NCBI RefSeq assembly: GCF_000284115.1
Contig: NC_017080.1
Location: 420,001 to 452,000 of the forward strand
Reading direction: 5' to 3'
Source: Phycisphaera mikurensis NBRC 102666
GTDB taxonomy: Bacteria; Planctomycetota; Phycisphaerae; Phycisphaerales; Phycisphaeraceae
DNA length: 32,000 nt
The notes beneath the pieces are model-generated. The model had not been told where the DNA came from. It saw only the letters and a list, made by a program, of their open reading frames with translations, and made no database searches. A program made the translations under genes and the position numbers. This document shows positions 1,168 through 30,671 of this stretch, in pieces. Positions within the stretch are counted from its first letter, which is position 1. Each line of letters opens with the position of its first letter.

Positions 1168-1213
1168 CCGCGGACCGCGGCCTCCGGAGCCGGCAAACGA
1201 CGACGGTCCGCGG
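1168..1213. repeat. 46-bp palindromic element, copy 1 (CCGCGGACCG-N26-CGGTCCGCGG)
   Basis: Exact arms at 1168-1177 and 1204-1213 with a 26-nt spacer. The perfect inverted repeat extends to 12 bp (ATCCGCGGACCG 1166-1177 / CGGTCCGCGGAT 1204-1215). It starts immediately after the rplT stop (1163-1165). Confidence 0.9.
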
Positions 1214-1634
1214 ATCCCGCGGCCGCGTTCTGCTGCGCCCCGGGACTGCCGGATGGGCAGCGCGGCAGGGGGTTCGTGTGCTCGACGGCAACCGGGTGCG
1301 AGCGGTCGCTGCGTTCTGCCGCGAAGGGGGAAGGCGCGGAGGCCGCGAAGGAGCAGAAGGCAGAAGCGCTCCTGAAGGCACGCGACACCGGGTTCGATCC
1401 GCTTTGCGCTCGGGCACGGCGTCGGCTCGATCTCGCCTTCGCGACCTTCGCGCCTGCTCCTCGTCCGCGGTCGGCGGAGCGCTGCTCGTGGATGCCCGGC
1501 CCTCTGGCACCCCTGTTGCAGTGCTTGAAGCCACGCCCAGAGTCCGGAAGACCCGACGCGTAGCCTCTCTACGGCCCCGGTCCCCCGGCGGTCGATCCAA
1601 TACGACGAGCCCCCCTCCCGAAGAGGAACCCACC

Positions 1635-4268
<2,634 letters not shown>

Positions 4269-4321
4269 TCGCCACGACCCGCCGCCGCACCGGGTGCGGC
4301 GGCGGCCCGGAAGCACCGCAA

Positions 4322-4343: not shown

Positions 4344-4408
4344 GGTTGCGCCCGTCTTCCGGGGCCCGACCGCTTACAGCGGGGGGGAGCAAAGGCCGAT
4401 AGGCGGGC

Positions 4409-6080: not shown

Positions 6081-7163
6081 CTACGCGATCAGCAGCTCCG
6101 CGATCTGGACGGCGTTCAACGCCGCCCCCTTGCGGATCTGGTCCCCGCAGAGGAACAGGTCCAGGCCGCGGCCCGCGGGCCGCGAGAGGTCGCGGCGGAT
6201 GCGGCCGACCTGCACCGGGTCGGTCCCGCTGGCGTCCAGCGGCGTGGGGAAGGTCTCGGTCGCGCGGTCGTCGACCACGACGACGCCGGGCGCGGCGGCC
6301 AGCAGCTCCCGGGCTTCGTCCTCGTGCAGGTCGCGCGTGAAGGCGAGGTTGAGCGACTCCGCGTGGGCCCGCATCACCGGGACGCGGATGCAGGTGGCGG
6401 TGATCCCGGTGCGGGCGGCTTCGGGCAGCGCGTCCTGCCGCCAGATCTTGTGGGTCTCGTGGACCATCTTCAGCTCTTCCTGGTTGTAGCCGTTGGGCTG
6501 CAGCGGGGAGTTGTGGCTGAAGAGGTTGAAGGCGTAGGTGCGGCCGAAGACCGCCTTGCTCCTGACCTCGCGGCCGCCGGCTTCGTCCAGCGACTCGCGC
6601 GTCTGCTGCTCGAGCTCGCTCATCGCCGCCGCGCCGCCGCCGGAGGCGGCCTGGTATGTGCTCGCGACGATCCGCTCCACGCCCGCCGCGGCGTGCAGCG
6701 GGTGGACGACCACGAGCATCAGGATCGTCGAGCAGTTGGGGTTGGCGACGATGCCGGAGCGGCCGCCGGCACCCAGGCCGATGCCGGCCTGCGCGATGGC
6801 GTCGGGGTTCACCTCGGGGACGACCAGCGGGACGCCCTCGGCCATGCGGAAGGCCGAGGAGTTGTCGATCACGGTGCAGCCGGCGTCGACGGCGAGCGGC
6901 GCGAACGCCTTGGAGACGCCGCCGCCGGCGGAGAACAGCGCCAGGTCCACCCCCTCGAAGGAGTCTTCCTTCAGCTCCTCGATGGTGTGGGTCTTCCCGC
7001 CGTACGCGACCTCGCGCCCCGCGGACCGGGCGGAGGCGAGCAGCTTGAGCCTCCCGATCGGGAAGTTCCGCTCGGCGAGCACGGCGAGGAACTCCTGGCC
7101 GACGGCGCCGGTGACGCCGGCGATGGCGACGGAGGGGGATTCGAGGGCGTGGGTTCGGGCCAT
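6081..7163 (-). CDS. asd: Aspartate-semialdehyde dehydrogenase
   Basis: VAIAGVTGAVGQEFLAVL...DNSSAFRM...VPEVNP...IVANPNCSTI (active-site Cys) ...STYQAASGGG. I start it at the internal ATG (complement of 7161-7163, MARTHALESPS) rather than the 54-codon upstream extension. Confidence 0.93.
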   Translation of the reverse strand: MARTHALESPSVAIAGVTGAVGQEFLAVLAERNFPIGRLKLLASARSAGREVAYGGKTHTIEELKEDSFEGVDLALFSAGGGVSKAFAPLAVDAGCTVIDNSSAFRMAEGVPLVVPEVNPDAIAQAGIGLGAGGRSGIVANPNCSTILMLVVVHPLHAAAGVERIVASTYQAASGGGAAAMSELEQQTRESLDEAGGREVRSKAVFGRTYAFNLFSHNSPLQPNGYNQEELKMVHETHKIWRQDALPEAARTGITATCIRVPVMRAHAESLNLAFTRDLHEDEARELLAAAPGVVVVDDRATETFPTPLDASGTDPVQVGRIRRDLSRPAGRGLDLFLCGDQIRKGAALNAVQIAELLIA

Positions 7164-7269: not shown

Positions 7270-7315
7270 CCGCGGACCGTCGGCTCCGGGCCTGCGTCAA
7301 GCCGACGGTCCGCGG
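7270..7315. repeat. 46-bp palindromic element, copy 2
   Basis: Arms at 7270-7279 and 7306-7315 with a 26-nt spacer. The palindrome extends inward to 16 perfect bp (CCGCGGACCGTCGGCT / AGCCGACGGTCCGCGG). It lies 24 nt downstream of the PfkB-kinase stop and about 107 nt upstream of the asd start (both on the minus strand). Confidence 0.9.
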
Positions 7316-7338
7316 GAGCTGGCACCCGCGCAGGCCCT

Positions 7339-8313
7339 TCAGGCCCGGACGAGGCGGAGGATCCGCTCGGGCAAATCGGGCGTCGCCCCCGCCCGGCCCG
7401 CCACGAACGCGCCCATCGCGTTGGCGACCGTCAGGGCGTGCTCCATCGGGTGGCCGGTCACCAGCGCGGAGAGCAAGCCGGCGCTGCAGGCGTCGCCCGC
7501 ACCCACGGAGTCGGCGTCGCCGTCGGGATCGAAGACGCCCGGCTCGCCGCGCAGCTCGGCCTCGGCGGTCAGCGCCACCGTGCCCTCGCTCCCGAGCGTG
7601 AGGACGACGGCGTCGAGCCCGAAGCGCTCCCGCAGGCCGGCGGCGTCGGCGACGCCGGTCAGCGAGCAGACGGTGCCGAGCTCCTCGTCGTTGAGCTTCA
7701 CCAGGCTGGCCAGGGTGCAGCCCGCACGCAGCACCTCGGCGTCGTAGAAGCTCCGGCCGTCGGAGGCGCGGAGGTTCACGTCGAAGAGCCGGACCGCGCC
7801 GCCGCCCACGCCGCCGACGCGGTCGACGAAGCGGCGGAGGGTCGCGGCGGACACGGGGTTGCGTTGGGCCAGCGAGCCGAAGGCGACGGCGGAGCACGAG
7901 CCGGCGAGCGCGTCCAGCGCCGGCGTCGCCGCGAGGAAGTCCCAGGCCGACTCCTGCGCCACGTGGAAGGCGTGCCCGCCCTCGCCGTCGAGCTCGACGT
8001 CCACCCGCCCGGTCGGGTGGTCCGGATCGCTCTGCACGAAAGCGTCGTCGAGGCCGCGGGCATGCAGCTCGTCCCGCAGCCTCCGCCCGAGGTCGTCAAC
8101 GCCCACGCGGCTGACGACGACGCCGCGCCCGGCGGGCTCGGCCGCGCCGAGCAGCCGGTGGGCGTGGACGGCGACGTTCAGCGGCGCCCCCCCGAGGCGC
8201 GGGCCCGAGGGGAACACGTCGAACAGCGCCTCGCCGAGGCCCGCCACGACGGGCCCGTCGGCGTCGCGGGCGCGGGGCGGCAGGTCGGATCCGGCGGTGT
8301 CGGTGTCGTTCAT
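7339..8313 (-). CDS. PfkB-family carbohydrate kinase (fructokinase/ribokinase-like)
   Basis: N-terminal GEALFDVF...GGAPLNVA and the C-terminal PfkB signature SVGAGDACSAGLLSAL. Substrate cannot be assigned from sequence alone. Confidence 0.85.
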   Translation of the reverse strand: MNDTDTAGSDLPPRARDADGPVVAGLGEALFDVFPSGPRLGGAPLNVAVHAHRLLGAAEPAGRGVVVSRVGVDDLGRRLRDELHARGLDDAFVQSDPDHPTGRVDVELDGEGGHAFHVAQESAWDFLAATPALDALAGSCSAVAFGSLAQRNPVSAATLRRFVDRVGGVGGGAVRLFDVNLRASDGRSFYDAEVLRAGCTLASLVKLNDEELGTVCSLTGVADAAGLRERFGLDAVVLTLGSEGTVALTAEAELRGEPGVFDPDGDADSVGAGDACSAGLLSALVTGHPMEHALTVANAMGAFVAGRAGATPDLPERILRLVRA

Positions 8314-8394
8314 GGTGGTCTCTCGGCGGGCGCCCGGAAGCTACGCGGGTGCGGGTCCACCGGGGCCGGGCGGGGTGTCTCCTAGGCTGGGCCG

Positions 8395-11300
8395 ATGCGG
8401 ATCCGCGACGCGAGCGTGCTCCGGGCGGGTTCGGTTTTGGCGGTGATCCCGGCGGTGCTGGCCGCCGCGCCCGCCGCGGCGGACGCCGTCCCGCTGGGGT
8501 CCGCGGTGTACGTGGAGGACTCGCCGACGGCGGTGCAGCAGCTGCTGCGGGCCGAGGAGCTGGCGGCGGCGGGGCGGCTGCAAGACGCCGCCGCGGCGCT
8601 CGATCGCGCGGTCGAGAACCACGGCGGCGACCTCGTTCCGGCGGGCGGCGATCCCGCGGAATTTGGCGACGCGAGCCGCCGCTTCGTGGAGGTCCGCAGC
8701 CGGGTCGCGGAGCGGCTCGCGGCCGATCCGCCCCTCGCCGCGGCGTACCGCGTGGCCTTCGGCGACGAGGCGCAGCGGCTGGCGGACCGGGCGGGCCGGC
8801 CGGCGGACCCCGCGGATCGCCGCACGGCCCTGGGCGAGGTCGCCCTCCGCTACGGCGCGACCGCCGCGGGGCGGACCGCCGCCCTCGACGCGGCGGGGTA
8901 CGCGCTCGAGGCGGCGGATCCCGCGGACGCCCGGCGCTGGCTGGCGGTCGCGGGGTCGGTCGCCGGCGAAGAGGCGGGCGATGCCGGACGCGGTGCGGAG
9001 CTGCACGCGGCGGCCGACGCGGTGGAGGCGGCCGCCCGTGCCGCGGCGGCCGCGGCGGCCGCGGCCGGCTCGGACGCCGCGTCCGCCCCCCTCGCGGCGG
9101 GCGGAGCGGAGCCCGGCCTCGGCGCGGCCTGGACCTTCTGGTTCGGCCCGCTGGGGGTGGAGCCCGGCGTCGACCAGAGCCGGAGGCTGGGCAGCGGCCG
9201 GCGTGCCGCGTCCCCGCCCCTCGTCGCGGCGCGGGGCTCCGCCGTGTTTCTCAACACCGGTGCGCTGCTGCTGCGGCTGGACCGTGACGCGGGCCGGCCG
9301 GTCTGGTCGGTGGATCCGCGGGGCGTGCCCGTGCCGCCGGTCGCGGGTGCCGCGGAGGGCGGGCGGGGCGTCCTGCTGCGGGGTGACGCCGCCATCGCGG
9401 TGCTCGGCGAGAGCCCCGACCCGCGGCAGCGACGCTTCGGCCTCGTCGAACCCGGCCGCGAGCCGACGCGGCTGGTGGCGGTGGACGCCCGGACCGGCGC
9501 GGCCCGGTGGTCGGTGACCCCCGAGGCGCTCGACCCGAGCCTCGCCCGCGCCGCCCTGGCGGGCACACCGATCGGGGACCCGGCCGACGCCGCCGGCCAG
9601 CCGCTGGTCGTGCTGCTGCGGCGGGCGGGCCGCGCCGGCTTCGTCGACACGCGGGTGGCGGGCGTCGACCCGGCGACGGGCGCGCTGCGGTGGACGCGGC
9701 CGCTCTCGAGCGTGTCCAGCGACGCCCGCTTCGGGAATCCCGATGAGCCCGCGCCCGTCGGTGTGGCCGCGGGCGGGCGGGTGTACGTGGACGCGGGGCT
9801 CGGCGTCACCGCCGCCCTGGACCCGCGGACCGGCCGCATCGCCTGGCTGCGGGTCGATGAGCCGGACCCGGGGGCTGCGGGCCGCGGCACGCGTTCCCGC
9901 GCCCCGGTGGCGGGCCCGTTTGCGCCGATCCTCACCGGCGCCGGGCTGATCGTCGGTCTGCCCGACGGCGGCCACGCGCTGCTGGATCCCGGCAGCGGCC
10001 GGCGGCTGGCGATGCCCGGCCCGCTCGGCGTCTCGCACGACCGGGCGGAGCTGCAGGCGGTCCGCGACTGCGGCCGCCTCGTCGGGCTCGTCGCGACGGC
10101 GGGCGGCGAGGCCGTCGCGCTCGACCCCGACACGCTGGCCGAGCGCTGGCGGGTGCCCGCGGGCGAGGCCCTCCCGCGGCCGGACGGGGAAGCCCGGCCG
10201 GCCGGGCCGGAGGTGGTCCTGGTGGCGGGGCGGGACGCCTTCCGTCGCCGGCTCTCCGACGGCGCCTTGCTCGCACGCGAGCCCGGAGGCGCCGGATTCG
10301 CCCGGGTCCGGCTGCCCGGCGGCGGCTGGATCCAAGCCTCGCCCGCGGCCGTCCGCCTGCACGACCGGCCCGGCGCCGCGGCCGAGCGGCTGGCCGCACG
10401 CGTGGCCGCCTCGCCCGAAGATCCCTCCGCCGGCCTCGCCCTCGCGTGGCTCGGCCTCGAGCGCGCCGACCCGGCGTGGCTGCTGGCGGGCACCGACGCC
10501 GCGCTCGACGCCGCGGCCGCCGCGGGCGGCCAGGAGGCCGGCCCGGTCGCGGCGGAGCTGCTCGAGCGGGTGGCCACGGCGGGAGCGGACCGCGCCTTCG
10601 ACGGCGTCCGGCGGGAGGTGCTCTCCCGCATCGCGGCCTCCGGCGCGGCCGATCCGATCGCGCTCGCGATGGTCTCCTCCGAGGCGGCACGCTCCGAGGG
10701 TCGTCTCGCCGACGCCGTCGCGCTGCTGCAGGAGGTCATCGACGACCCGGGCCTGGCGGACCGGCTGTTCGTGCTGCGGGGGACGACCCGCCGGGCCGGT
10801 CTGGAGGCGCGGGAGCGGCTGGCGGGGCTCCTCGCCGAGGGCCGCGAGCGGGGGATCGACCTCTACGCGACCCAGCGGGACCGGGCCGACGCCGCGTTCG
10901 TCGCGGCACGCGAGGCGGACGATGCGGCGGCGCTGTCCGAGGTCGCGCGACGCTTCCCCTTCTCGGCGGCGGCCGCCGGCGCCCTGGCCGCCGCCGCCGA
11001 GAAGGCCGGCGGCGCGGCCGATCCCGCGGGCGTCCGCGCGACCCGGTCGCTGTGGCGCTCCGCCTACCGCGCCGCCCTCGCCGCGAGCGAGAGCGGCGAC
11101 GCGGCCGCGGACCAGGTGGCGGCGCGGGCCGCCGCGGCGCTGGTGGCGGGAGAGGCCGCGGCGGGACGCCCCGCCGCGGCCCGCGGCTGGGCTCGCCGCT
11201 TCCGTCGGGAGCTGCCCGGCGTTGCGCTGCCGCTCCGGGGGCTGGAGACGGCGACCGCCTCGGCGGCCGACCCGGTGGAGGCCTGGATCGACGCGGCCGC

Positions 11301-12864
11301 GGCGGGGGGAGGCGACGCCGCGGACGGGCTGCCTCGCCTGCCCGGGGTGTGGACGGTCCGCGGCCGGCGGCCCGGGGCGCTCGTGCCCGCGCTGCCGGCC
11401 GCGGCCGCCGACGCGGGGGCCGCGCGGCTCGGCGCCGCCTTCGGGGAAGCCGATCCGGCCGCCACCCCCGCCGGCCGCGCCGGGGGCTCCCGGGTCGTCG
11501 TCACCGGCGGCGACGCGGCGGCGGCGTGGTCGGTGCTCGTGCCCGCTGCCGGCGGGCGCACCGAGCGGGGCTTCGACTTCCCCCCGCCGCCGGGCGACGC
11601 CGTCCTCCTGCTCGACGACGGCGACCTCCTCCTGCTGTTCAGCGCCGCCTCGGGCACGCTCCACCGCGTGCGTCCGCCCGGCGGGTCGGGCGGGGCCTTC
11701 GCCGCCGGCGACGCGGGGACGCTGGAGCTCTTCGATCCCGGGCCGCTGCTGGCCTCCGTCCCCGAAGCCGCCGCCGAGCCCGCCGCCGCCGCCGGCACCG
11801 TCGGCGGCGTTGCGCAGCGGATCGAGGCCGAGGGTCGGCGCGACCGGGCCCAGCAGGAAGCCATCCGGAGGCTGCGTGAGAACCGCGCCGCCCGCGTCGG
11901 CGACCGCCTCGGCCCCCGCGTGCTCGTGAACGGCCGCGTCCTGGCGAACGGCCGGGCCGTCGACGACGGCACCGTCGCGGTCCGCGGCGAGCGGCTCGCA
12001 GCCGCCACCCCCGGCGTCGTCGTGGTGGCCGGGGCGGACGGTCGGGTCGTCGCGGCCGATCCCGGCACGGGCCGGGTGCAGTGGGCGCGGCGGGTGCCGG
12101 TGGCGTCGCTGGATGGGCTGTACCTCGACGAGGAGAACCTCGTCCTCCGCGGCATGGACGCGCCCGGCGCCGAGTCCGCCGCCCACCGGCTGCTCCGCCT
12201 CGACCCGCTCACCGGCGAGACGCTCGCGCCCGACGTGGTCGAGGCGTCCCAGCGGCCGCTCGGCGTCGCCGTCGGCGGCGGGCGGCTCGTCGTCGCCTTC
12301 GAGCGCTTCGTGGCCGCCTACGGGCTGCCCGGCGGCGGCCTGCTGTGGCGGGCGCCGATCGCCGAGGACGAGGCGGCGGGCTTCTCCGGCCGGCTCATCG
12401 CCGGCGATGACGTCGTCGTCGCCGGCACCGCCGCCGGGGGTGTCACCCTTTGCGTGTACGACGCCGCGACCGGCGAACCGCGGGCCCGGCCGCTGGTGCC
12501 CGAACCGGGACGCGGTGCTCTGCCGCCGGGGGGCGCCCTGCTCTTGGGCGACCGGCTCGACCTGCCCGGTGGCCGCGCCGTCGACGCCCGCGGGCGTCGC
12601 CTCTTCGAGACGCCCGGCGTGGACGCCGCCCCCGCCCGCGTCGACGTCTCCGCCACCGAGGTCCTCGTCGCTTCCGCGGACGGCGGCGGCGCGGCCGTCC
12701 TCCGGCTGGACCGCGAGACGGGCCGCATGAGCGGGCGCTTCGACCTCCCGGAGCCGCCGGGCGGCCGCTCCGCCGGTGTGCCTCTGCTCCGCCTGGTTCA
12801 GCGGCTCCTGGTCGCCGAGGACGCCGCCGGCCTGCTCGTCGTCGACGCGGAGCCCGCCGATTGA
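8395..12864 (+). CDS. Large secreted Ala-rich protein with PQQ-like/BamB-like beta-propeller repeats
   Basis: Signal peptide [31 protein letters not shown]. An N-terminal helical (TPR-like) region is followed by recurring D(P/A)xTGxxxW-type blades ([59 protein letters not shown]). GC3 is high in this frame, whereas the equally long antisense ORF is Arg/Gly/Pro junk. Confidence 0.75.
11318..11363. repeat. 46-bp palindromic element, copy 7 (intragenic, one mismatch)
   Basis: CCGCGGACgG at 11318-11327 and exact CGGTCCGCGG at 11354-11363, with exactly 26 nt between them. It lies inside the 1489-aa CDS and encodes ..[18 protein letters not shown].. Confidence 0.55.
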
Positions 12865-12938: not shown

Positions 12939-14285
12939 ATGCCCTCCCTCTCCGTCTCGCTCGATCCCGCCAAGCCGCTTCTCTCCGTGAAAGCGGGCGT
13001 GGGCGAGCCCGCTCCCGCGGGAGTCTCGGCCCTGCAGGCGAGCGATCCCGAGATCGCCGCGCTCGTCGCCCAGGAGAAGGACCGCCAGCACCGCACCCTG
13101 GAGATGATCGCCAGCGAGAACCACGCGAGCCACGCGGTGATGGAGGCCCAGGGCAGCTGCCTCACCAACAAGTACGCCGAGGGCTACCCCGGCAAGCGCT
13201 ACTACTCGGGCTGTGCGTTCCACGACGAGGTGGAGACCCTCGCCATCGAGCGGGCCAAGCGGCTCTTCGGCTGCGGGTACGCCAACGTGCAGCCCCACTC
13301 GGGGGCCTCGGCGAACCTGGCCGTGCAGCTGGCCCTTTTCGACCCCGGCGACACCTTCGCCGCGATCGAGCTCTCCGACGGCGGCCACCTCACCCACGGC
13401 AGCCCGGTGAACCTCTCGGGCAAGTGGCTCAACCCCGTCACGTACAACCTGGTCACCGACGAGTCGCGGGAGGACTGGGGCCACCTGGACTACGACAGCG
13501 TCGACCGCGTGTGCGCCGAGCACAAGCCCAAGGTCCTGATGACCGGCTACTCGGCGTACCCGCGCACGATCGACTTCGCCCGCTTCCGCGAGATCGCCGA
13601 CCGGCACGGCGCGATCCTCTGGGCCGACGTGGCGCACATCGCCGGGCTCATCGCCGGCGGGGCGCACCCCTCCCCCTTCCCGCACTGCCACGTCGTGACC
13701 ACCACCACGCACAAGACGCTGCGTGGTCCACGCGGCGGCATGATCCTCACCGACGACGCGGACCTCGCGAAGAGGTTCAACTCGGCCGTCTTCCCCGGCA
13801 CCCAGGGCGGCCCGCTCATGCACGTCATCGCCGCCAAGGCCGTCGCCTTCGGCGAGGACCTGCAGCCCTCCTTCAGGGCCTACGCCGAGCAGGTCGTCGC
13901 CAACGCCAAGCGCCTCGCGGGCGAGCTGATGGACCGCGGCTACAAGCTCGCCAGCAACGGCACCGACAACCACCTCATCCTGGTGGACCTCCGCGCGACC
14001 GACCCCGAGCTCACCGGCAAGGACGCCGCGTCCTGGCTGGAGCGGGCCGGCATCATCGCCAACATGAACACCGTGCCCAACGAGACCCGCAGCCCCTTCA
14101 AGACCAGCGGCATCCGTCTGGGCACCCCCGCCTTGACCACCCGCGGCCTCCGCGCCGACGACCTCGCCGAGGTCGCCGGTTTCATCGACCGCGTGCTGAC
14201 CAGCCGCGGCGACGCCGCCGTCATCGACGCCGTCCGCGCCGACGTCGAGTCCCTCTGCGACCGCTTCCCCCGGCTCTCCGCCTGA
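12939..14285 (+). CDS. glyA: Serine hydroxymethyltransferase
   Basis: [57 protein letters not shown]...[16 protein letters not shown] (PLP-lysine motif). GGAG lies about 10 nt upstream of ATG 12939. Confidence 0.95.
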
Positions 14286-14372: not shown

Positions 14373-14418
14373 CCGCGGACCGCCGCCCCAACGGGTCGAT
14401 CCCGTCGACGGTCCGCGG
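14373..14418. repeat. 46-bp palindromic element, copy 3
   Basis: Exact arms at 14373-14382 and 14409-14418 with a 26-nt spacer. The right arm is extended as GTCGACGGTCCGCGGATCC. It lies in the 283-bp gap between convergent glyA and the DUF2721-like gene. Confidence 0.9.
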
Positions 14419-15101: not shown

Positions 15102-15971
15102 TCAGGCGTAGCGGACGGTGGTGACGAGCGGGGAGGAAGCGTGACCGAAGCGCAGCCCGCCGCCGGGCGTCGTCTCGATCGTCGGCAGGACGTGGAGGTG
15201 CGGCTCGCCGTCGCCGGGGAAGTAGTCGGCGTCGGTGTGCGTGCCCGACACGGCCGGGCACCAGCGGAAGAGGGTGGGGCCGACCCGCCGCTCCCGCCAG
15301 CGGTGCACGTGCCCGTTGCACACGGCGGCGACGCAGGGGCGGTCGAGCAGGGCGAGCACCCGATCGCGGGCGGCGGGCTCGGGGCACCAGTACAGCTCGC
15401 GGCCGGTGCGTCGCTCGTCGGGCTCGCGGAGGAAGAGCGGAGCGTGCTGGAAGAGGGCAACCTTCTCCCCGGCCCGCTCCGCCTGGTCGAGTTCCTCCCG
15501 CAGCCAGGCTTCCTGCTCGGCCTCGGCCGCGAGGCCGCTGCCCCAGACCTGGCTGTTGCAGCCCAGGAGGCGGAGGCCGTCGGCCGCGAACGAGAAGCGG
15601 TCGGGCCCGAAGGCTTCGGCCCAGGCGGCGAGGCGGTCGGCGTTCACCGGCCAATCGGTCAGCGACGAGGGGAAGTTGCCGGCGTCGTGGTTGCCGGGCA
15701 CGAGGTGCACCGACGCGACCGCCGCGGACCGCGTCGGCAGACCGCGGAAGAAGGCCGCGATCCGCGGGTACTCGGTCGGGTCCCGGAAGCCGAGGTCGGC
15801 GAGGTCGCCGGTGACGACCACCCGCCAAGGCTCGCCGGCGGGGAGCGCGTCGAAGCCGCCGGTGACGAGGCGTTCGAGGTGGGCCCAGGCGAGGCGGTTG
15901 GGCGCGGCGTGGTCCGGGTCGGTCGGATCTTCGTGGCCCAGGTGGAGGTCGGAGATCTGGACGACGCGCAT
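15102..15971 (-). CDS. Metallophosphoesterase (calcineurin-like)
   Basis: The canonical motif series is present: ISDLHLG, VVVTGDLAD, VPGNHD, GHVH. Confidence 0.85.
   Translation of the reverse strand: MRVVQISDLHLGHEDPTDPDHAAPNRLAWAHLERLVTGGFDALPAGEPWRVVVTGDLADLGFRDPTEYPRIAAFFRGLPTRSAAVASVHLVPGNHDAGNFPSSLTDWPVNADRLAAWAEAFGPDRFSFAADGLRLLGCNSQVWGSGLAAEAEQEAWLREELDQAERAGEKVALFQHAPLFLREPDERRTGRELYWCPEPAARDRVLALLDRPCVAAVCNGHVHRWRERRVGPTLFRWCPAVSGTHTDADYFPGDGEPHLHVLPTIETTPGGGLRFGHASSPLVTTVRYA
15722..15767. repeat. 46-bp palindromic element, copy 8 (intragenic, one mismatch)
   Basis: Exact CCGCGGACCG at 15722-15731 and CGaTCCGCGG at 15758-15767 with a 26-nt spacer. It lies inside the metallophosphoesterase CDS and encodes PRIAAFFRGLPTRSAA on the minus strand. 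Confidence 0.5.
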
Positions 15972-16077: not shown

Positions 16078-17016
16078 ATGAAGATCCTCCTGACCGGCGC
16101 CTCCTCCTTCACGGGAGCCCACTACGCGGCGACGCTCGCGGCCCGCGGCCACGAGGTGACGGCGACGTTCACGCGCGGGGAGGGCGACTACGCCGACGGC
16201 GGGGTGCGGCAGGACCGGGTCGCCCGGGTGACCGGCTGCGCCAAGCCGCTCTGGAACGCTTCCTTCGGCGACGACCGCTTCACCGACACGCTCGCCTCGG
16301 GCGGCTTCGACGCGTTGTGCCACCACGCGGCGGACGTCACGGACTACAAGTCGCCCGCTTTCGACGCGGCGGGCGCCATCGCCAACAACACCCGCAACGC
16401 CCACGCCGTGCTGGCGAGCGTGGCGGCCGACGGCGGCGTGCTCATGCTCACCGGCTCGGTCTTCGCCGGCGGCCGCGGCGCGGGCAGCGACGGTCTCCCG
16501 CACTTCTCGCCGTACGGCCTCTCCAAGGGCCTCTCCAACGAGCTGCTCGCCTACCTCGCGGCGGCCGCGGGCGTGCCGTGCGGCGAGGTCGTGATCCCCA
16601 ACCCCTTCGGCCCGCTGGAGGAGCCGCGCTTCACCGCCTACCTCGTCAAGACGTGGATGAAAGAGGAGGCGGCGGGCTGCAACACGCCGCTTTACGTGCG
16701 CGACAACCTCCACGTCGGCCTGCTGGCGCTGGCCTACGCCGACGCGGTGGAGCGGCTCGCGGCCCGGCGGCCGGCTTTCGAGCGGCTCGAGCCCTCGGGT
16801 TACATCGAGAGCCAGGGCGCCTTCGCGCAGCGCTACGCGCGGGAGATGTCCGGCCGGCTCGGGAAGCCGTGCGTGCTGAACCTGGCCGACCAGACCGCAT
16901 TCAGCGAGCCGCGGATCCGCGTGAACACCGACCCGCTGGACGAGGCGGCGCTGGGCTTCGACGAGGCCGCGGCTTGGGACGAGGCGGCCGCGGACTACCT
17001 CCGGCGGCTGGGCTGA
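16078..17016 (+). CDS. NAD-dependent epimerase/dehydratase (extended SDR)
   Basis: MKILLTGASSFTGAHYA is a Rossmann motif and SPYGLSKG is a YxxxK catalytic motif. The gene is divergent from the metallophosphoesterase. Confidence 0.8.
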   Translation: MKILLTGASSFTGAHYAATLAARGHEVTATFTRGEGDYADGGVRQDRVARVTGCAKPLWNASFGDDRFTDTLASGGFDALCHHAADVTDYKSPAFDAAGAIANNTRNAHAVLASVAADGGVLMLTGSVFAGGRGAGSDGLPHFSPYGLSKGLSNELLAYLAAAAGVPCGEVVIPNPFGPLEEPRFTAYLVKTWMKEEAAGCNTPLYVRDNLHVGLLALAYADAVERLAARRPAFERLEPSGYIESQGAFAQRYAREMSGRLGKPCVLNLADQTAFSEPRIRVNTDPLDEAALGFDEAAAWDEAAADYLRRLG

Positions 17017-17048: not shown

Positions 17049-17094
17049 CCGCGGACCGCGGGCGGTTCGAGGGGAAAACGGCGGCGGTCCGCGG
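17049..17094. repeat. 46-bp palindromic element, copy 4
   Basis: Exact arms at 17049-17058 and 17085-17094 with a 26-nt spacer. The inverted repeat extends to 11 bp (CCGCGGACCGC / GCGGTCCGCGG). It lies between the epimerase stop (17016) and the lipoprotein start (17130). Confidence 0.9.
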
Positions 17095-22135: not shown

Positions 22136-23286
22136 AGCTCGCGATGATCGGCTGCGGCTACGTGGCGAACATGTACCGGCTGACCCTCCCGCTCCACGCG
22201 GAGCTGGAGCTGGTGGGCGTGTGCGACCGCGACGCGGACCGGGCCGCCAAGATGGGCGAGCTGACGGGTGCCCGCGTCTACGCGGACCACGCCGAGGCCT
22301 GCGCCGACCTGTCGGTGGAGCTGGTGCTCAACCTCACCAACCCGGCGAACCACGTGCCGGTGACGCGGGCGGCGCTCGAAGCCGGGAAGCACGTCTTCAC
22401 CGAGAAGCCGGTGGCGCTGGACCAGCAGGAGGCGGCGTCGCTGGTGGCGCTCGCGAGAGAGCGGGGCGTGATGCTGTCGTCGGCGCCCTGCACGCTGCTC
22501 GCCGACGCCGCGCAAACGCTCTGGCGAGCGGTGCGGGAGGAGGAGGTCGGGAAGATCCGGCTGGTGTACGCCGAGATGGAGGACGGGCCGGTCCACCAGA
22601 TGCCGCTGCGGAAGTGGGTGAACGAGGCGGGCGTGCCCTGGCCGTACGTGGACGAGTTCGAGACCGGCTGCACGGTGGAGCACGCCGGCTACGTGCTGTC
22701 GTGGCTGTGCGCGATGTTCGGGCCGGCGAGGAGCGTCACCGCATTTGCGGCGGAGCTGGTGCCGGTGGAGGAGAAGATGCAGCGGCTGCCCGAGGACGCG
22801 TCGGCGGTGAAGGCGGTGGACGACTTCTCGGTCGCGTGCATCCGCTTCGCCTCCGGGCCGGTGGCGCGGCTGACCTGCGGGATCTACGCCAGCCACGACC
22901 ACCGGCTGCGGCTCTTCGGCGACGCGGGGGTGCTGGAGGTCGACGATCCGCGGAGCGACCGCTCCCCGGTTCGGCGGCGGCGGTACCACCAGATCCGCCG
23001 GAAGCGCTTCCTCTCGCCGCTGGCCAGGAAGCTCCCGCTGATCGGGGCCAAGCAGGAGAAAGTGGCCTACCGCGGGAGCCAGAGCCGGGACTTCTGCCGC
23101 GGGATCGCCGAGATGGCGGCGGCGCACCGGGCGGGGCGGCCGCCGCGGCTCGGCGCCGACTTCGCGCTCCACGTCAACGAGCTGACGATGGCGACGCAGA
23201 ACGCCCGGACGACCGGCATGCCGCACGAGCTGGCGACCACCTTCGAGCCGGTGCGGCCCGGCGGGTACCCGGAGGTGAATCCTTGA
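22132..23286 (+). CDS. Gfo/Idh/MocA-family oxidoreductase
   Basis: The ATG overlaps the previous stop (ATGA). MKLAMIGCGYVANMY is a Rossmann fold and HVFTEKPVAL is the EKP motif. Confidence 0.85.
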   Translation: MKLAMIGCGYVANMYRLTLPLHAELELVGVCDRDADRAAKMGELTGARVYADHAEACADLSVELVLNLTNPANHVPVTRAALEAGKHVFTEKPVALDQQEAASLVALARERGVMLSSAPCTLLADAAQTLWRAVREEEVGKIRLVYAEMEDGPVHQMPLRKWVNEAGVPWPYVDEFETGCTVEHAGYVLSWLCAMFGPARSVTAFAAELVPVEEKMQRLPEDASAVKAVDDFSVACIRFASGPVARLTCGIYASHDHRLRLFGDAGVLEVDDPRSDRSPVRRRRYHQIRRKRFLSPLARKLPLIGAKQEKVAYRGSQSRDFCRGIAEMAAAHRAGRPPRLGADFALHVNELTMATQNARTTGMPHELATTFEPVRPGGYPEVNP

Positions 23287-23339
23287 ACGCGTTGCGTCTG
23301 CGGCATCGGGCTCGTCTGCGGACACGGGGTGTGGCGGAT

Positions 23340-23385
23340 CCGCGGACCGCCGGGGGTTGGGTCTGTTGTCGTCGACGGTCCGCGG
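23340..23385. repeat. 46-bp palindromic element, copy 5
   Basis: Exact arms at 23340-23349 and 23376-23385 with a 26-nt spacer. The extended arms are GGATCCGCGGACCG / CGGTCCGCGGATtCC. It ends 10 nt before the ATG at 23395. Confidence 0.9.
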
Positions 23386-23394
23386 ATTCCGCTC

Positions 23395-24300
23395 ATGGGT
23401 GATCCCGCCCCCATCGCGGTCACCGGCGCGGCCGGGTTCCTCGGCTCGGCGATCCTCGACGCGGCGGCGGAGGCCGGCGTGCCGGTGCGGGCGGTGCTGC
23501 GGGAGGGCTCGACGCTGCCGGGCGGGGGGCGCGAGGGCGTGGAGGTGATTGCCTGCGGGCTCGACGATCCCGAGGCGCTGCGGGCGGCATTCCGCGGGTG
23601 CCGGGCGGTCGTCCACGCGGCGGCGTCGATGCGCGGCGACGGGCGCGACCCGACGGCGACGGTGCTCGACGCGGTCCGGGGGGAGGATCGGCCGCTCGTG
23701 CTGATCAGCTCGCTGAGCGTCTACGGCTTCGAGGCCCTCGAGCCCGGCGACGCGCTCACGGAGGATCGCCTCCGCTTCGACTCCGCGGGCGAGACCGGCC
23801 GCGACGCCTACGCGGCGCTCAAGCTCGGCCAGGAGCGGCACGCCGAGGCGCTGGCGGAGCGGCACCACCCGGTGGTCGTGCTGCGGCCGGGGGTGATCGT
23901 CGGGCCGGGCCGGAGGTGGTCGGCGCGGCTGGGCGTGGCGAAGGGGCCGCTGGCGGTCCGCATCGGCGGCGGGGCGGCGGTGCCGCTGATCGACGTCGCC
24001 GACTGCGGCCGGGCGGCGGTGCGGGCGGCGGTGCTGGAGCCCCAGCCGGGCTTCCGCGCCTTCAACCTCGTCGGCGACGACACGCCGACCCAGCGGGCGT
24101 ACCTGCGGCGGATCCGGCGAGAGGCGGGCGTGAAGGCGATCCTGCCGGTCCCCGCCGGGCTGATCGCCCGGGCCGGCCGCCTGCTGCACCCGCTCCTGGG
24201 CCGCCGGCTGCCCGGCATCCTCCGCCCCGCGGCCTTCGACGCGCGGTTCAAGCCGCTGCGTTATCCCAACGATCAAGCCAGAGCCGCCGGCCTGCTTTGA
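23395..24300 (+). CDS. NAD-dependent epimerase/dehydratase (SDR)
   Basis: MGDPAPIAVTGAAGFLGSAIL (GxxGxxG) and DAYAALKLG (YxxxK). Confidence 0.8.
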   Translation: MGDPAPIAVTGAAGFLGSAILDAAAEAGVPVRAVLREGSTLPGGGREGVEVIACGLDDPEALRAAFRGCRAVVHAAASMRGDGRDPTATVLDAVRGEDRPLVLISSLSVYGFEALEPGDALTEDRLRFDSAGETGRDAYAALKLGQERHAEALAERHHPVVVLRPGVIVGPGRRWSARLGVAKGPLAVRIGGGAAVPLIDVADCGRAAVRAAVLEPQPGFRAFNLVGDDTPTQRAYLRRIRREAGVKAILPVPAGLIARAGRLLHPLLGRRLPGILRPAAFDARFKPLRYPNDQARAAGLL

Positions 24301-25538: not shown

Positions 25539-25607
25539 AAGGCAAGCCTCCCGCCGATCCTGCCGATAGCCACGCCGGGTGCCTTCGCTGTCCGGGCGGC
25601 TCCCAAG

Positions 25608-25634
25608 GACCCGCCCCCCCCCCGGGGGCGGGTC
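25608..25634 (+). promoter_or_regulatory. 11-bp perfect GC hairpin containing a C10 homopolymer (possible attenuator/terminator or phase-variable tract)
   Basis: GACCCGCCCCC (25608-25618) pairs with GGGGGCGGGTC (25624-25634) across the loop CCCCC. The uninterrupted C run spans 25614-25623. It lies 70 nt after the GT1 stop and 36 nt before ATG 25670, with no U-tract. The structure is certain; the function is not. Confidence 0.4.
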
Positions 25635-25669
25635 GGATCCTCCTCCCGACGCCCGGCCCGAACCGCGAG

Positions 25670-26807: not shown

Positions 26808-28163
26808 ATGCCCGCTCCCGCCGCCGAACCCGCTGCCGACGCCGCGCCGGTGGCGTACCTGGTCAACGCGTACCCGAAGGTGAGCCACGCGTTCATCCGC
26901 CGCGAGATCGCGGCGCTCGAGGCGCTCGGGCAGCCGGTGCAGCGGGTGTCGATCCGGGCGGCGGAGGGCCTTGTCGACCCCGAGGACCTGGAAGAAGCAG
27001 GCCGCACGCGGGTCCTGTTCGAGCCGGCGCGGCTCGTGGGGCCGGCGCTGCGGGCGGCGCTGCGGCCGGGGCGGCTGGCGCGCGCCCTCGGGCAGGCGAT
27101 GGGCATGGCGGCGGCCCGCGGTGGCGGCCTCGCCGGCCGGCTCCGCCACCTGGTCTACCTGGTGGAGGCCTGCCGGCTGCGAGAGCTCGTCGACGCGGCC
27201 GGCGCCCGCCACGTGCACGCCCACTTCGGCACGAACCCCGCGGCGGTGGCCCGGCTGTGCCGGACGCTCGGCGGCCCGCCCTTCTCCTTCACGGTGCACG
27301 GCCCCGAGGAATTCGACCGGCCGGTGGGGCTCTCGCTGGCGAGCAAGGCGGCGGACGCCGCTTTCGTCGCCGCGGTGTCGAGCTTCGGGCGGAGCCAGCT
27401 GATGCGCTGGATCGACCCGCGCGCTTGGGACCGCATCGCCGTCGTGCGGTGCGGGCTCGACGCGGCGTACCTCCAAGCGGGCGACGCGGGGGCCTCCCGG
27501 CCCGCGAAGGCGGACCTCTTCGTGTGCGTCGGGCGGCTGTGCGAGCAGAAGGGCCAGCACCTGCTGGTGGAGGCGGTGGCCCGGCTGGCGGAGGGTGGCT
27601 CGCCGGTCCGGCTCCGCCTGGTCGGAGACGGCCCGATGCGGGCCGACCTGGAGGCTTTCGCCCGCGAGCGCGGAGTCGCCGACCGCGTCGAGTTCACCGG
27701 CAACGCCTCGGCGGAGGCGGTCCGCGGCCACCTGCTCGACGCCCGCGCAATGGCATTGCCGAGCTTCGCCGAGGGGCTTCCGGTGGTGCTGATGGAGGCG
27801 CTGGCGCTGGGCCGGCCGGTCATCAGCACCTACATCGCCGGCATCCCCGAGCTCGTCGACGCCGGGTGCGGCTGGCTCGTGCCCGCCGGGGATGCCGACG
27901 CCCTCGCCGAGGCGATGCGGGCGGCGCTGGCCGCGCCCGCCGCGGACCTGGACGCGATGGGCCGCGAGGGCCGCCGCCGCGTGCTCGAGCGACACGCCGC
28001 GCCGCGAATCGCAGCCCAGCTGCTCGGGCTCTTCGACGACGCCACACCCGCCGGCGAGCGCTCCGCGGCGGTGGCCTCGGCGGAAGCCGAAGCCCACGCG
28101 ACGCCCGAGGACCGGCCCGCGGCGGCGGCCGCCTCCCGTGTGGCCCCCGCGCCCGCGGCCTGA
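26808..28163 (+). CDS. Glycosyltransferase family 1/4 (WcaL-like), paralog B
   Basis: VAYLVNAYPKVSHAFIRREIAAL, FSFTVHGP, CVGRLCEQKG and LPSFAEGLPVVLMEALALGRPVIST. It is clearly homologous along its length to the GT1 at 24297-25538. Confidence 0.85.
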   Translation: MPAPAAEPAADAAPVAYLVNAYPKVSHAFIRREIAALEALGQPVQRVSIRAAEGLVDPEDLEEAGRTRVLFEPARLVGPALRAALRPGRLARALGQAMGMAAARGGGLAGRLRHLVYLVEACRLRELVDAAGARHVHAHFGTNPAAVARLCRTLGGPPFSFTVHGPEEFDRPVGLSLASKAADAAFVAAVSSFGRSQLMRWIDPRAWDRIAVVRCGLDAAYLQAGDAGASRPAKADLFVCVGRLCEQKGQHLLVEAVARLAEGGSPVRLRLVGDGPMRADLEAFARERGVADRVEFTGNASAEAVRGHLLDARAMALPSFAEGLPVVLMEALALGRPVISTYIAGIPELVDAGCGWLVPAGDADALAEAMRAALAAPAADLDAMGREGRRRVLERHAAPRIAAQLLGLFDDATPAGERSAAVASAEAEAHATPEDRPAAAAASRVAPAPAA

Positions 28164-28179
28164 AGACCCGGCGTCCGCC

Positions 28180-28230
28180 CACCCGCCCACCCGCACCCGC
28201 ACCCGCACCCGCACCCGCACCCGCACCCCG
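28180..28230. repeat. Hexanucleotide microsatellite (CACCCG)n
   Basis: Six perfect tandem CACCCG units span 28188-28223. A further unit at 28180-28185 and an imperfect unit at 28224-30 flank them. The tract is intergenic, between the GT1 stop (28163) and the GT2 start (28252). Confidence 0.9.
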
Positions 28231-28251
28231 CTCGCTCCCGTCCGACCGCCC

Positions 28252-29493
28252 GTGATCTTCGCCCTCGCCCTCCTGACCTCCGCCGCCGCCGTCGCCGTTT
28301 CGGTGCCGATGCTGGTGTTCGTGGTCGAGTGCCTCGCGGCGTTGACTCCGCCGCCGCGGCGGGCCGTGGAGGCCAACCCGCAGGCCCGCCCGAGCCTGGG
28401 CGTGATCGTGCCGGCGCACAACGAGGAGCTCACCCTGGCCGAGTCGCTGGCGGCGCTGATCCCCCAGCTCTGGCCCGGGGACCGCGTGGTGGTGGTCGCC
28501 GACAACTGCACCGACCGCACGGCCGCGATCGCCCGGGCCGCGGGCGCGGAGTGCGTGGAACGCTCGAGCACGACCGAGGTGGGCAAGGGCCACGCGCTCG
28601 CCGCCGGGCTGGACCACCTCCGCGACGCCCCGCCGGCGGTGGTCGTCATCATCGACGCCGACTGCCGGGTGCTCCCCCGGGCGTTGGGCCGGCTCGCCGC
28701 CGCGGCGGCCGCCAACAACGCCCCGGTCCAGTGCGTCTACCTGCTCGAACCGGACCGCGACGGCAGCCCGCTCTCGCGCATGTCCAACTTCGCCTTCCTC
28801 GTGAAGAACCTCGTCCGGCAGCGTGGCCTGATGGTGCTCGGCCAGCCGGCGTTGCTCCAAGGCACCGGCATGGCCTTCCCCTGGATGGTGATCGACGCCG
28901 CCCAGCTTGCCACCGGCCACATCACCGAGGACCTGGTGATCGGCTTGGAGATGCTCGAGCGCGGGCACTCGCCCCGCTTCTGCGACACCGCCCGCGTCGT
29001 CTCGGATCAGGCCGCGCCCGACGCGGAGGTCGCTCAGCGCACCCGCTGGGAGCACGGCTACCTGTCGACGATGATCTCCCGCGGGCCGCGGCTGCTCATC
29101 AAGGGCCTCACCGGGCGGCCCGAGCTGCTGGGGATGGCGGCCGACCTCACCGTGCCGCCGCTCTCGCTGCTGATGATGCTCTACGCGGGCGTGACCGCGC
29201 TGGCCGGGGCCGCGACGCTGGTGACCACCCTGCTGAACCACCCGCTCGCGCTGGCGATGCAGATCGTGCTGGCGTGGCTGGGGCTGCTCGGCGTCGCCTT
29301 CGCGGTGGTGATCACCGCCGTGTGCCGGGTGTTCGCGCGGTCGGTGATGCCGGCATCGACGCTGCTGCAGGCGCCGCTCTACGCGCTTTCGAAGCTGCCG
29401 ATCTACTTCGGCTTCCTCGCGGGCCGCGAAACCCGCTGGGTCCGCACCGAGCGCCACGCCGCGGAGAAGCCGGGCGCCGGGAGCGTCGCGTGA
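28252..29493 (+). CDS. Processive synthase-type glycosyltransferase family 2 (COG1215-like)
   Basis: The GTG start gives an N-terminal TM helix (IFALALLTSAAAVAVSVPMLVFVV). Motifs are VIVPAHNEE, VVADNCTDRT, VVVIIDADC (DxD), ITEDLVIG (TED) and QRTRWEHG (QxxRW). Several C-terminal TM helices follow. An alternative in-frame ATG lies at 28309. Confidence 0.8.
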   Translation: MIFALALLTSAAAVAVSVPMLVFVVECLAALTPPPRRAVEANPQARPSLGVIVPAHNEELTLAESLAALIPQLWPGDRVVVVADNCTDRTAAIARAAGAECVERSSTTEVGKGHALAAGLDHLRDAPPAVVVIIDADCRVLPRALGRLAAAAAANNAPVQCVYLLEPDRDGSPLSRMSNFAFLVKNLVRQRGLMVLGQPALLQGTGMAFPWMVIDAAQLATGHITEDLVIGLEMLERGHSPRFCDTARVVSDQAAPDAEVAQRTRWEHGYLSTMISRGPRLLIKGLTGRPELLGMAADLTVPPLSLLMMLYAGVTALAGAATLVTTLLNHPLALAMQIVLAWLGLLGVAFAVVITAVCRVFARSVMPASTLLQAPLYALSKLPIYFGFLAGRETRWVRTERHAAEKPGAGSVA

Positions 29494-30671
29494 GCGGTGC
29501 CTTCCCCTCGGTCCGCGTCCCGCACGAGCGGCGCGGCGGCGGCGGCGCCGAGCGCATCGACGTGTCGGTGGTCGTGCCGGTTTACAACGAGGAGGGCGCG
29601 GCGGCGCAGCTGGTCTGCGAGGTCGTCGCCGTCCTCGACGAACAAGCGGCCCGGGGCCGCCGCTACGAGGCCCTCTTCATCTCCGACGGAAGCCTCGACC
29701 GCACGGTGGAGCGGCTGCGCGAGGCCGCGGGCGACGACCCGCGGGTGGCCATCGTGCAGCTGATGCGCAACTTCGGGCAGACCGCGGCGACCGCCGCGGG
29801 CTTCGACCTGGCACGCGGGGCCGTGGTGGTGCCGATGGACGGCGACCTTCAGAACGATCCCGCCGACATCCCCAGGCTCGTCGCCAAGCTCGACGAGGGC
29901 GGCGACGCGCCCGGCCGGTGGGACGTCGTCTCGGGCTGGCGGCGCGACCGGCAGGACCGGCTGCTGTCGCGGCGGCTGCCCTCGATCGTGGCGAACCGGC
30001 TGATCAAGCGGCTGACCTGGACGCGGGAGATCCACGACTTCGGCTGCTCGCTGAAGGCCTACCGCCGCGAGATCCTCGACGACGTCACGATCTACGGCGA
30101 GATGCACCGCTTCCTGCCGGCGATCTGCAAGTGGCGGGGGGCCCGGATCACCGAGCTGGAGGTGAACCACCGGCCCCGGGCCCACGGCAAGAGCAAGTAC
30201 GGGCTCAAGCGGACCGGGAAGGTCCTGCTGGACCTCATGACCGTGAAGTTCCTGGGCGACTACCTCACCAAGCCGATCTACTTCTTCGGGAAGCTCGCCG
30301 CGATCTCGCTGCTGGTCTCCGGCGTGGGGGTGGTCTTCGCGCTGGTCCAGAAGCTCGGCCACCTCACCGAGCACGGCCAGCCGGTGATGCTCAACGACAA
30401 CATCCTGGTTCTGCTGGCGCTGCTCACGTTCATGATGACGGTGCTGTTCCTGGTGATCGGCGTGCTCTCGGAGCTGATGGTGCGGATCTACTACGAGAGT
30501 CAGGACCGGGCGCCGTACAAGATCCGATCGCTGGACCGCGGCCTCGGCGGCGGGCCCGACGGCGGCGGGGCGGTGCCCGCGGACCGCGGCGCGGGGGAAC
30601 CGTTCGCGGCCGCGGTCCGCGGGCATGCGGCGGCGGCCGGGCCGCTGGAGCGGGCGCCGGGCGCCGCCTGA
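29490..30671 (+). CDS. Polyprenol-phosphate glycosyltransferase (GT2; GtrB/ArnC/DPM1-like)
   Basis: The GTG start overlaps the previous stop (GTGA). Motifs are VSVVVPVYNEE, FISDGSLDRT, RNFGQTAA and VPMDGDLQNDP. Two C-terminal TM helices end in MVRIYYESQ. A 44-aa low-complexity tail follows. Confidence 0.88.
   Translation: MSGAFPSVRVPHERRGGGGAERIDVSVVVPVYNEEGAAAQLVCEVVAVLDEQAARGRRYEALFISDGSLDRTVERLREAAGDDPRVAIVQLMRNFGQTAATAAGFDLARGAVVVPMDGDLQNDPADIPRLVAKLDEGGDAPGRWDVVSGWRRDRQDRLLSRRLPSIVANRLIKRLTWTREIHDFGCSLKAYRREILDDVTIYGEMHRFLPAICKWRGARITELEVNHRPRAHGKSKYGLKRTGKVLLDLMTVKFLGDYLTKPIYFFGKLAAISLLVSGVGVVFALVQKLGHLTEHGQPVMLNDNILVLLALLTFMMTVLFLVIGVLSELMVRIYYESQDRAPYKIRSLDRGLGGGPDGGGAVPADRGAGEPFAAAVRGHAAAAGPLERAPGAA
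30577..30622. repeat. 46-bp palindromic element, copy 6
   Basis: Exact arms at 30577-30586 and 30613-30622 with a 26-nt spacer. The palindrome extends inward to 14 perfect bp (CCGCGGACCGCGGC / GCCGCGGTCCGCGG). It lies inside the low-complexity 3' tail of the GtrB-like ORF. Confidence 0.9.

Follow-up and report, generated by a model that had tools for sequence, protein, structure and literature searches.

The window analysed here, a 32-kb stretch of the Phycisphaera mikurensis chromosome with 75% G+C, carries dispersed copies of a palindromic element, several of them just downstream of genes such as rplT, pfkB and glyA. The core of the element is 46 bp long and is formed by the inverted 10-nt arms CCGCGGACCG and CGGTCCGCGG, separated by a 26-nt interior (N26). 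Gene calls were those of the public assembly GCA_014207395.1, whose contig JACHEL010000014.1 is identical to the window, and had Pfam support. The copies and the unpaired arms found in the window were the following:

1168..1213, copy 1: perfect core; intergenic, 2 nt past the rplT stop; outer extension at 1164-1215 (GAAT...AT), the rplT stop TGA (1163-1165) overlapping GAAT; hairpin of −31.7 kcal/mol; best profile match on the − strand.
7270..7315, copy 2: core free of mismatches, its palindrome continued inward to 16 bp; hairpin of −42.3 kcal/mol; intergenic, 24 nt past the stop of pfkB (−) and 107 nt ahead of the start of asd (−).
14373..14418, perfect copy 3: in a convergent spacer, 88 nt past the stop of glyA (+) and 151 nt past the stop of a DUF2721 gene (−); the two strands fold at −37.1 and −40.6 kcal/mol.
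17049..17094, copy 4 of the perfect set: hairpin of −39.1 kcal/mol; best profile match on the + strand; intergenic, 33 nt past the stop of an epimerase gene (17016) and 36 nt ahead of the start of a DUF4056 gene (17130).
23340..23385, copy 5 of the perfect set: outer extension at 23336-23389 (GGAT...ATTC); intergenic, 54 nt past the stop of a GFO-family gene and 10 nt ahead of the ATG of an epimerase gene (23395).
30577..30622, copy 6 of the perfect set: palindrome of 17 bp per arm (30574-30590, 30609-30625); hairpin of −52.8 kcal/mol; within the C-terminal, low-complexity part of the GT2 gene 29490..30671 and 117 nt ahead of the next gene (start 30739).
15722..15767, imperfect copy: right arm CGATCCGCGG; inside a metallophosphoesterase gene (15102..15971, −); profile E = 8e-5.
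11318..11363, doubtful copy: left arm CCGCGGACGG, with one mismatch; inside a PQQ/BamB-like gene (8395..12864).
7019..7028 (+), unpaired exact arm: inside asd; no partner at any spacing; probably not an element.
9823..9832 (+), single exact arm: at the Pro-Arg-Thr codons of the PQQ gene; unlikely to be an element.
11978..11987 (−), single exact arm: at the Ala-Val-Arg-Gly codons of the PQQ gene; unlikely to be an element.
27718..27727 (−), single exact arm: within the coding sequence of a GT4 glycosyltransferase; unlikely to be an element.

Exact arms (CCGCGGACCG or its complement) occurred 18 times in the window, as compared with 1.33 ± 1.08 in dinucleotide-preserving shuffles, and the pattern CCGCGGACCG-N26-CGGTCCGCGG, with at most two mismatches, occurred eight times against an expectation of 0.01. 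Six of these pairs are perfect (1168, 7270, 14373, 17049, 23340 and 30577) and two contain one mismatch (11318 and 15722), so that the eight copies, their coordinates and the 10-26-10 geometry reported in the original prediction were all confirmed, every count included. When the gap was left free at 11–41 nt, the six N26 pairs were recovered and nothing else; with spacers of 5–60 nt and up to three mismatches, N26 gave eight pairs and any other gap none to three. In the window the 26-nt gap is invariant, as had been claimed, and no other spacing is enriched in this range. Fourteen of the 18 exact arms belong to N26 pairs and four are single, at the four positions already given in the original prediction (7019, 9823, 11978 and 27718). 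Inside genes eight arms were seen, as against 1.37 ± 1.21 in shuffles keeping the amino-acid sequence and codon usage, and 10 more were present within the 3.6 kb of non-genic DNA of the window; the excess thus holds against shuffled controls, including the codon-preserving ones that had been proposed as a check. A ninth perfect copy, also intergenic, was found 3 kb upstream of the window, which gives a density of nine copies per 39.9 kb of P. mikurensis DNA.

The arms extend outward to (G)AAT / ATTC on about one quarter of the element sides, the full form reaching up to 54 bp. AT was present as the outer bases on 33 of 130 sides (background 2.8%) and GAAT on 14, and some full-length copies have the form TGAAT...ATTCA, i.e., TG...CA ends. 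The inward and outward extensions of the palindrome described earlier for some copies were present, as was GACGGTCCGCGGAT on the right side of copies 1, 3 and 5. Shorter palindromes, CCGCGG and CGGWCCG, are nested in each arm, and some arms form a complete palindrome of 13 bp, CCGCGGWCCGCGG.

The mismatch of the copy at 15722 corresponds to a G-U wobble on the mRNA strand. For the copy at 11318 the profile match was confined to the arms; an in-frame insertion was ruled out at this place by the lack of any indel relative to the orthologue in locus L177, and the copy is either a decayed one or a rare coincidence. The surrounding PQQ/BamB-like gene (8395-12864, 1489 aa) reaches 80–82% G+C, has three in-gene exact arms and contains long imperfect palindromes of GCGGCCGC-type repeats, especially at 9005-9108. 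At the end of the GT2 glycosyltransferase gene (30530-30671), the called gene continues past the conserved C-terminus (...YKIRSLDRG) via the copy at 30577 into a Gly/Ala/Pro-rich tail; this copy has apparently been absorbed into the annotated open reading frame (ORF).

The position relative to genes was assessed on the 13 copies for which public gene calls exist, the periodicity of G+C at third codon positions having left 48 of 66 metagenome copies unassigned. Nine of the 13 lie in tandem spacers, three in convergent spacers and one in a 3′ tail; none was found in a divergent spacer, where only about 2.4 would be expected by chance. The five intergenic copies of the window are 2, 24, 88, 33 and 54 nt from the nearest upstream stop, so that the public gene calls bear out their predicted location past stop codons (2–88 nt). 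Gene 3′ ends are where the copies sit; the spacers are tandem or convergent, and the stop codon is often only a few bases away. In five copies a TGA directly precedes the AT of the extended arm (cTGAATCCGCGG). According to the gene calls this TGA is the stop codon of the upstream gene at 1163-1165 of the window and at 8065-8067 and 13181-13183 (−) of L176, and it was read as a stop from the sequence alone at about 529 of L124 and about 917 of L139. It may be that the element provides this stop codon or limits its choice, or that it prefers such places for insertion.

Metagenome contigs were scanned with N26 fixed, which yielded 53 loci, about 35 of them from the marine assembly ORXU01; other spacings were not found in the flanks of these 53 loci. 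The original prediction had described the spacers as unrelated in sequence, and this proved wrong. Among 66 unique copies the mean best pairwise identity of the interiors was 10.18/26, as compared with 8.59 in composition-matched shuffles, and 69 pairs of interiors were identical at 16 or more of the 26 positions, where 1.8 were expected. The interiors can be oriented and share a weak consensus, (A)AT-CCGCGGACCG-tsGCCGgTTTCGGsC...aaGrGCsr-CGGTCCGCGG; near-identical paralogous interiors were absent among the 66 copies. Since the interiors are alike beyond the shuffles and have kept a weak consensus, all copies are, judging from these alignments, diverged descendants of one ancestral sequence. 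Common descent also means that the shared length needs no mechanism that would produce free sequence of a fixed length.

The copies are predicted to fold into very stable hairpins (−32 to −53 kcal/mol; z-scores between −2.5 and −6.3), the stem-loops expected of repetitive extragenic palindromes (REPs). Within the interior only the pair 11-36 covaries (38 Watson-Crick pairs versus 22 ± 3.3 expected), deeper positions being at chance level, and base-pairing of the interior was accordingly rejected as the cause of the fixed length. No T-tract follows any copy, and a terminator scan flagged none of them; the window has no excess of T-tract terminators (five versus 4.2 expected). A plain intrinsic (Rho-independent) terminator, which would have a short loop and a T/U tract behind its G+C-rich hairpin, does not fit, and the terminator hairpins considered in the original prediction were not borne out in this plain form. 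Rfam gave no match at the gathering score, and its E-value mode gave none at the element coordinates. One Rfam match below threshold, CRISPR-DR16 at 16955-16998 (−) inside the epimerase gene (26.8 bits versus 35, E = 0.027), was judged to be due to chance, there being no array context.

Two other intergenic features were noted in the window. In the rplT-clpC spacer a conserved non-coding block at 1228-1275, TTCTGCTGCGCC...CTGCCGGATGGGCAG...GGCAGGGGGTTCG, contains an invariant small hairpin, CUGCC-GGAUG-GGCAG, and is kept in three genomes (the window, L128 and L177) amid an otherwise diverged spacer. It had no Rfam match, and may represent either the native terminator of rplT or a leader element of clpC. 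Between two glycosyltransferase genes, at 25606-25641, there is a different hairpin built on a C10/G10 run (AGGACCCGCCCCCCCCCCGGGGGCGGGTCGGATCCT).

Two copies could be compared with their orthologues in a sister genome of the assembly ORXU01. In contig L128, whose rplT product is 95.5% identical in amino acids, an element lies at the rplT stop codon, and this orthologue of copy 1 (L128:414-459) matches it at every arm base and at 18/26 interior positions. The orthologue of the copy at 23340 (L139:922-967), again 10 nt ahead of the epimerase start, likewise agrees over the whole of both arms, and at 20/26 positions of the interior. Over both copies the arms differ at 0/40 positions and the interiors at 14/52 (27%; Fisher p = 1.9e-4), while codon third positions of the same genome pair differ at 19/72 (26%). 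The spectrum of mismatches points in the same direction. In the 39.9 kb of P. mikurensis DNA, N26 pairs with zero to five mismatches numbered 7, 2, 0, 0, 2 and 15, and the mean for other spacings was 0, 0, 0.15, 0.8, 3.0 and 13.3. Degenerate copies with two to six arm mismatches were thus absent at N26 in this DNA, and the arms appear all-or-none, with no pool of decaying copies.

The spacing is similarly kept. About 70 of 71 copies hold exactly 26 nt, the lone N25 variant being in L176, and the paralogous interiors are near saturation. From the general frequency of indels relative to substitutions, at least one indel per copy would be expected at such interior divergence. As the arms are unchanged at 40 of 40 bases while the interiors diverge at the synonymous rate, and as the length of 26 nt persists despite near-saturated interiors, these comparisons indicate strong purifying selection on the arms and on the 26-nt spacing of resident copies, with an interior sequence that evolves neutrally. 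The suggestion of a length-measuring partner, made in the original prediction, is in part upheld: selection on the spacing and the complete retention of the arms fit a sequence-specific partner, whereas the premise of unrelated spacers fails.

The element recurs outside the window, in independent assemblies and in metagenomes. In L176 and L177, where an orthologous HDOD-GGDEF protein is 74% and 66% identical, respectively, five elements and one element with identical arms were found (five N26 and one N25 overall). The rplT-clpC spacer of L177 has a copy at another position than in P. mikurensis, and its syntenic asd-pfkB spacer, the site of copy 2, is empty. Copies have evidently been gained and lost in different intergenic spacers since the species split; they may have spread by a dedicated transposase or by recombination. 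Planctomycetota metagenome-assembled genomes (MAGs) outside the clade with 62–64% G+C (L180 and L181) lack the element. A search with the MreB-like gene of L144 gave no P. mikurensis orthologue among its matches and led to related MAGs free of the element. In unrelated high-GC genomes the histogram of spacer lengths was broadly flat, N26 making up 3 of 120 among the matches listed, and viral contigs gave 0 element matches. Judged by these comparisons, the clade that carries the element is narrow and the element is lineage-specific.

When positions 600-1090 of L139 were compared with 23100-23500 of the window, the first homologous base proved to be that of the left end of the element, and upstream of that edge L139 consists of unrelated DNA with a second element copy; by this alignment, the element marks a rearrangement junction (synteny breakpoint). 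In L176, a short island of degraded PIN-toxin and antitoxin-like ORFs at 8066-8934 has an element copy on each side, one of them being the sole N25 variant. The same 10-nt arms were also found at N40 in Kitasatospora (L006:6396, L036:7516, L056:4702, L062:6473, L078:4439, L088:2102 and L091:6666). This repeat, cacgaaccac-CCGCGGACCG-cgacggcagtcccgcaccc...gtgcggactcgccgtcg-CGGTCCGCGG-tcgtttccgg, has a long palindrome as its interior, and both interior and flanks are conserved. It appears to be a separate family of the REP-like type with the same arm sequence.

Among the closest known systems are the REPs, bacterial interspersed mosaic elements (BIMEs) and REP doublets forming hairpins (REPINs) of Enterobacteria and Pseudomonas, which are likewise short high-copy extragenic palindromes able to form stable hairpins. 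As in REP/BIME families, the copies occupy tandem and convergent spacers, their presence varies among related genomes in a lineage-specific manner, and the stem is conserved around a variable centre. REP/BIME elements are rare in promoter-only spacers, and a similar trend may hold here, with none of 13 copies in a divergent spacer against about 2.4 expected. REP dimers with spacers similar in length and different in sequence have been described (PMC3733652). The element is thus a REP in the broad sense of a short, dispersed, multi-copy and mostly extragenic palindrome (five of the six perfect window copies being intergenic). The tagged REP superfamilies, in contrast, have an unpaired GTAG or CGTC at one end, a stem of 5–13 bp and a loop of 2–20 nt (Di Nocera 2013). 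The flanks (G)AAT/ATTC of the P. mikurensis element pair with each other, its loop is 24–26 nt and neither tag is present, which places it outside these superfamilies. Its arms of 10–14 nt, unlike the members of REP doublets, have no internal stem-loop, so that one hairpin is formed instead of two; because the arms are unable to fold alone, the element is not a REPIN doublet. It further differs from REP/BIME elements in its long, neutrally evolving 26-nt interior and in its host, a planctomycete of the class Phycisphaerae, and from REPIN systems in that no REP-associated tyrosine transposase (RAYT) was seen in the DNA examined (274 kb motif scan). A second similar case is the uncharacterised pair GAATCCAT(N)23ATGGATTC of Bradyrhizobium japonicum, present in tens of copies, about 90% of which lie between genes, some 50 bp from the 3′ end of a gene (Mrazek group, PMC5217627). 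Both have short palindromic arms at a fixed gap, and the outer bases GAATCC of the B. japonicum pair recur in the extended arm of the P. mikurensis element; the arm sequence and the gap (23 versus 26) differ, and the host is alphaproteobacterial.

Several explanations other than a REP-like element serving its host were weighed. The copies might be a selfish non-autonomous mobile element, comparable to miniature inverted-repeat transposable elements (MITEs) or REPINs, whose arms are the recognition ends of a RAYT/HUH-Y1 or DDE transposase encoded at another place in the genome and are conserved for mobility rather than for the benefit of the host. The shared descent of the copies, their varying presence and position in orthologous spacers of different species, the copy exactly at the synteny breakpoint, the two copies that bracket the degraded toxin-antitoxin island of L176 and the TG...CA ends of some full-length copies (TGAAT...ATTCA) all agree with mobility. 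The arms are perfectly inverted over 10–14 bp, as the terminal inverted repeats of MITEs are, and the short non-coding interior, the many dispersed copies and the insertion polymorphism between species are also MITE-like. A class 3 TnpA-Y1 family, which is rare and has been reported mainly from Planctomycetes, but also from Acidobacteria and Legionella, is flanked by REP-like hairpins about 26 nt long that have a CnGA foot at the 5′ end, internal bulges and a loop of 4 nt (PMC6006769); these are G+C-rich, reach high copy numbers in some hosts and contain CCGCGACCGT, one base from CCGCGGACCGT. The P. mikurensis element, in contrast, has its partner arm 26 nt away and no CnGA foot, and no class 3 gene was seen. 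Its size of 46–54 bp is below that typical of MITEs, and inspection of full-length copies gave no consistent direct repeat beside them that could be a target-site duplication, nor any clean pair of filled and empty sites. In 274 kb of element-bearing loci a regular-expression scan detected no ORF with the HUH-Y1 motif, a weak argument given that only one copy of the gene would be expected; the ORFs adjoining double copies are not transposase-like, and no autonomous insertion sequence with the same termini was present in the loci examined. The arms cannot fold alone into the foot-plus-hairpin recognised by RAYTs, and near-identical paralogous interiors are missing from the 66 copies. Immobile relics should decay neutrally, whereas in resident copies the interior drifts but all 40 of 40 arm bases are retained, and no relics with two to six arm mismatches were seen. 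This conservation in situ argues against a purely selfish MITE and for a conserved partner and a host-level role, and we consider the mobile-element explanation unlikely.

The element might instead be a bipartite site on duplex DNA for a host protein (a nucleoid-associated protein, a topoisomerase, or a roadblock terminator or insulator), with half-sites 36 bp apart, centre to centre, and with an irrelevant hairpin. Such a site would account for the strict spacing around a neutral and largely unstructured interior, for the invariance of the arm sequence itself, beyond complementarity, across copies and species, and for the palindromic sub-sites CCGCGG and CGGWCCG and the full 13-bp palindromes of some arms; BIME-type REP pairs of E. 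coli bind gyrase and IHF. A distance of 36 bp, however, is about 3.4 helical turns and would put the half-sites on nearly opposite faces, the covariation of the pair 11-36 (38 versus 22 expected) indicates some selection for the stem, the palindrome is lengthened inward or outward in many copies, and the tight placement at stop codons is easier to tie to transcripts. A duplex site with no part for the hairpin is therefore rather improbable. Inverted pairs of an uptake-signal-like motif that form terminators, as known for the uptake signal sequences (USS) of Haemophilus and the DNA uptake sequences (DUS) of Neisseria, share with the element a strongly over-represented 10-nt motif and inverted pairs at gene 3′ ends, and the USS pair as a terminator has a precedent (PMC5217627). 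USS and DUS, however, number thousands of copies that are mostly single and within genes, with pairs in the minority, whereas only 4 of the 18 arms are single, against 1.4 in-gene arms expected; the gap is rigid at 26 nt and not short and variable, no T-tract is present and the interiors are of common ancestry. This origin, which the original prediction had listed, is very unlikely. Finally, the 75% G+C of the window and the match of in-gene single arms with common peptides, e.g., A/T-V-R-G, could suggest a coincidence of extreme G+C and codon bias. Eight N26 pairs against 0.01 expected, the 1.4 arms of codon-preserving shuffles against eight in genes and 10 in 3.6 kb of non-genic DNA, and the same element in independent assemblies and metagenomes speak against it; the shuffles already refute this idea, whose chance of being right is negligible.

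We conclude, with a probability of roughly 0.55, that these are lineage-specific REP-like extragenic palindromes of P. mikurensis and its close relatives, read by a sequence-specific partner and with a host role at gene ends. That part of the original prediction which placed a REP-kind family of extragenic palindromes at gene 3′ ends agrees with the non-random, dispersed, hairpin-forming and intergenic copies described above. A conserved trans-acting partner would read the arms sequence-specifically, its target being either the stem of a stable hairpin in single-stranded DNA or RNA, or two half-sites on duplex DNA. The covariation of the arm-adjacent pair and the frequent extensions of the palindrome favour the stem, while duplex half-sites are favoured by the rigidity of the spacing and by an interior without structure. 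The service to the host would be rendered at transcript or operon boundaries, either as 3′-end protection or as bidirectional termination or insulation, in a manner likened to that of the REP/BIME elements of enterobacteria.

A number of points weigh against this conclusion. The orientation of the copies to transcription has no clear bias (three co-directional versus two anti-directional), which does not favour a role at the RNA level. The interior is nearly without structural constraint (minimum free energy z-score of −0.66 versus interior shuffles), a loop of 24–26 nt is unusual for a hairpin acting in RNA, and a fixed loop length is not an obvious requirement of a hairpin. The GTAG or CGTC tag that defines the classical REP superfamilies is absent. 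The trans-acting partner is hypothetical, the function at gene ends is deduced from position alone, and the genome-wide copy number, about 900, is an extrapolation from 40 kb.

More tentatively, and with the odds clearly against it, the element could be the cis-site of an undescribed sequence-specific, length-measuring factor that marks the 3′ boundaries of genes or operons in Phycisphaera. Such a factor, either a protein-dependent bidirectional terminator or insulator or a chromosome-architecture system, would need only the arms and a 26-bp ruler, and would replace canonical T-tract terminators in a planctomycete of 73–75% G+C.

Literature searches for the arm sequence gave primers and cloning sites only, and those for Phycisphaera palindromes or repeats gave nothing relevant; together with the lack of an Rfam match, this agrees with the original prediction, in which the element was not recognised as a described family. 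The family is previously undescribed, but it is an example of known REP-like repeats and no new category, since REP-like palindromes with variable centres of fixed length are on record in other phyla. As a marker, the motif picks out Phycisphaera-like contigs in metagenomes. Demonstrable purifying selection on resident copies is rare among dense repeat families, and the combination of selected arms and spacing with a neutral interior points to a conserved partner protein and a host-level role at about one site per 4–5 kb. Transcription termination and chromosome organisation in planctomycetes are poorly understood, and the element provides a testable handle on both.

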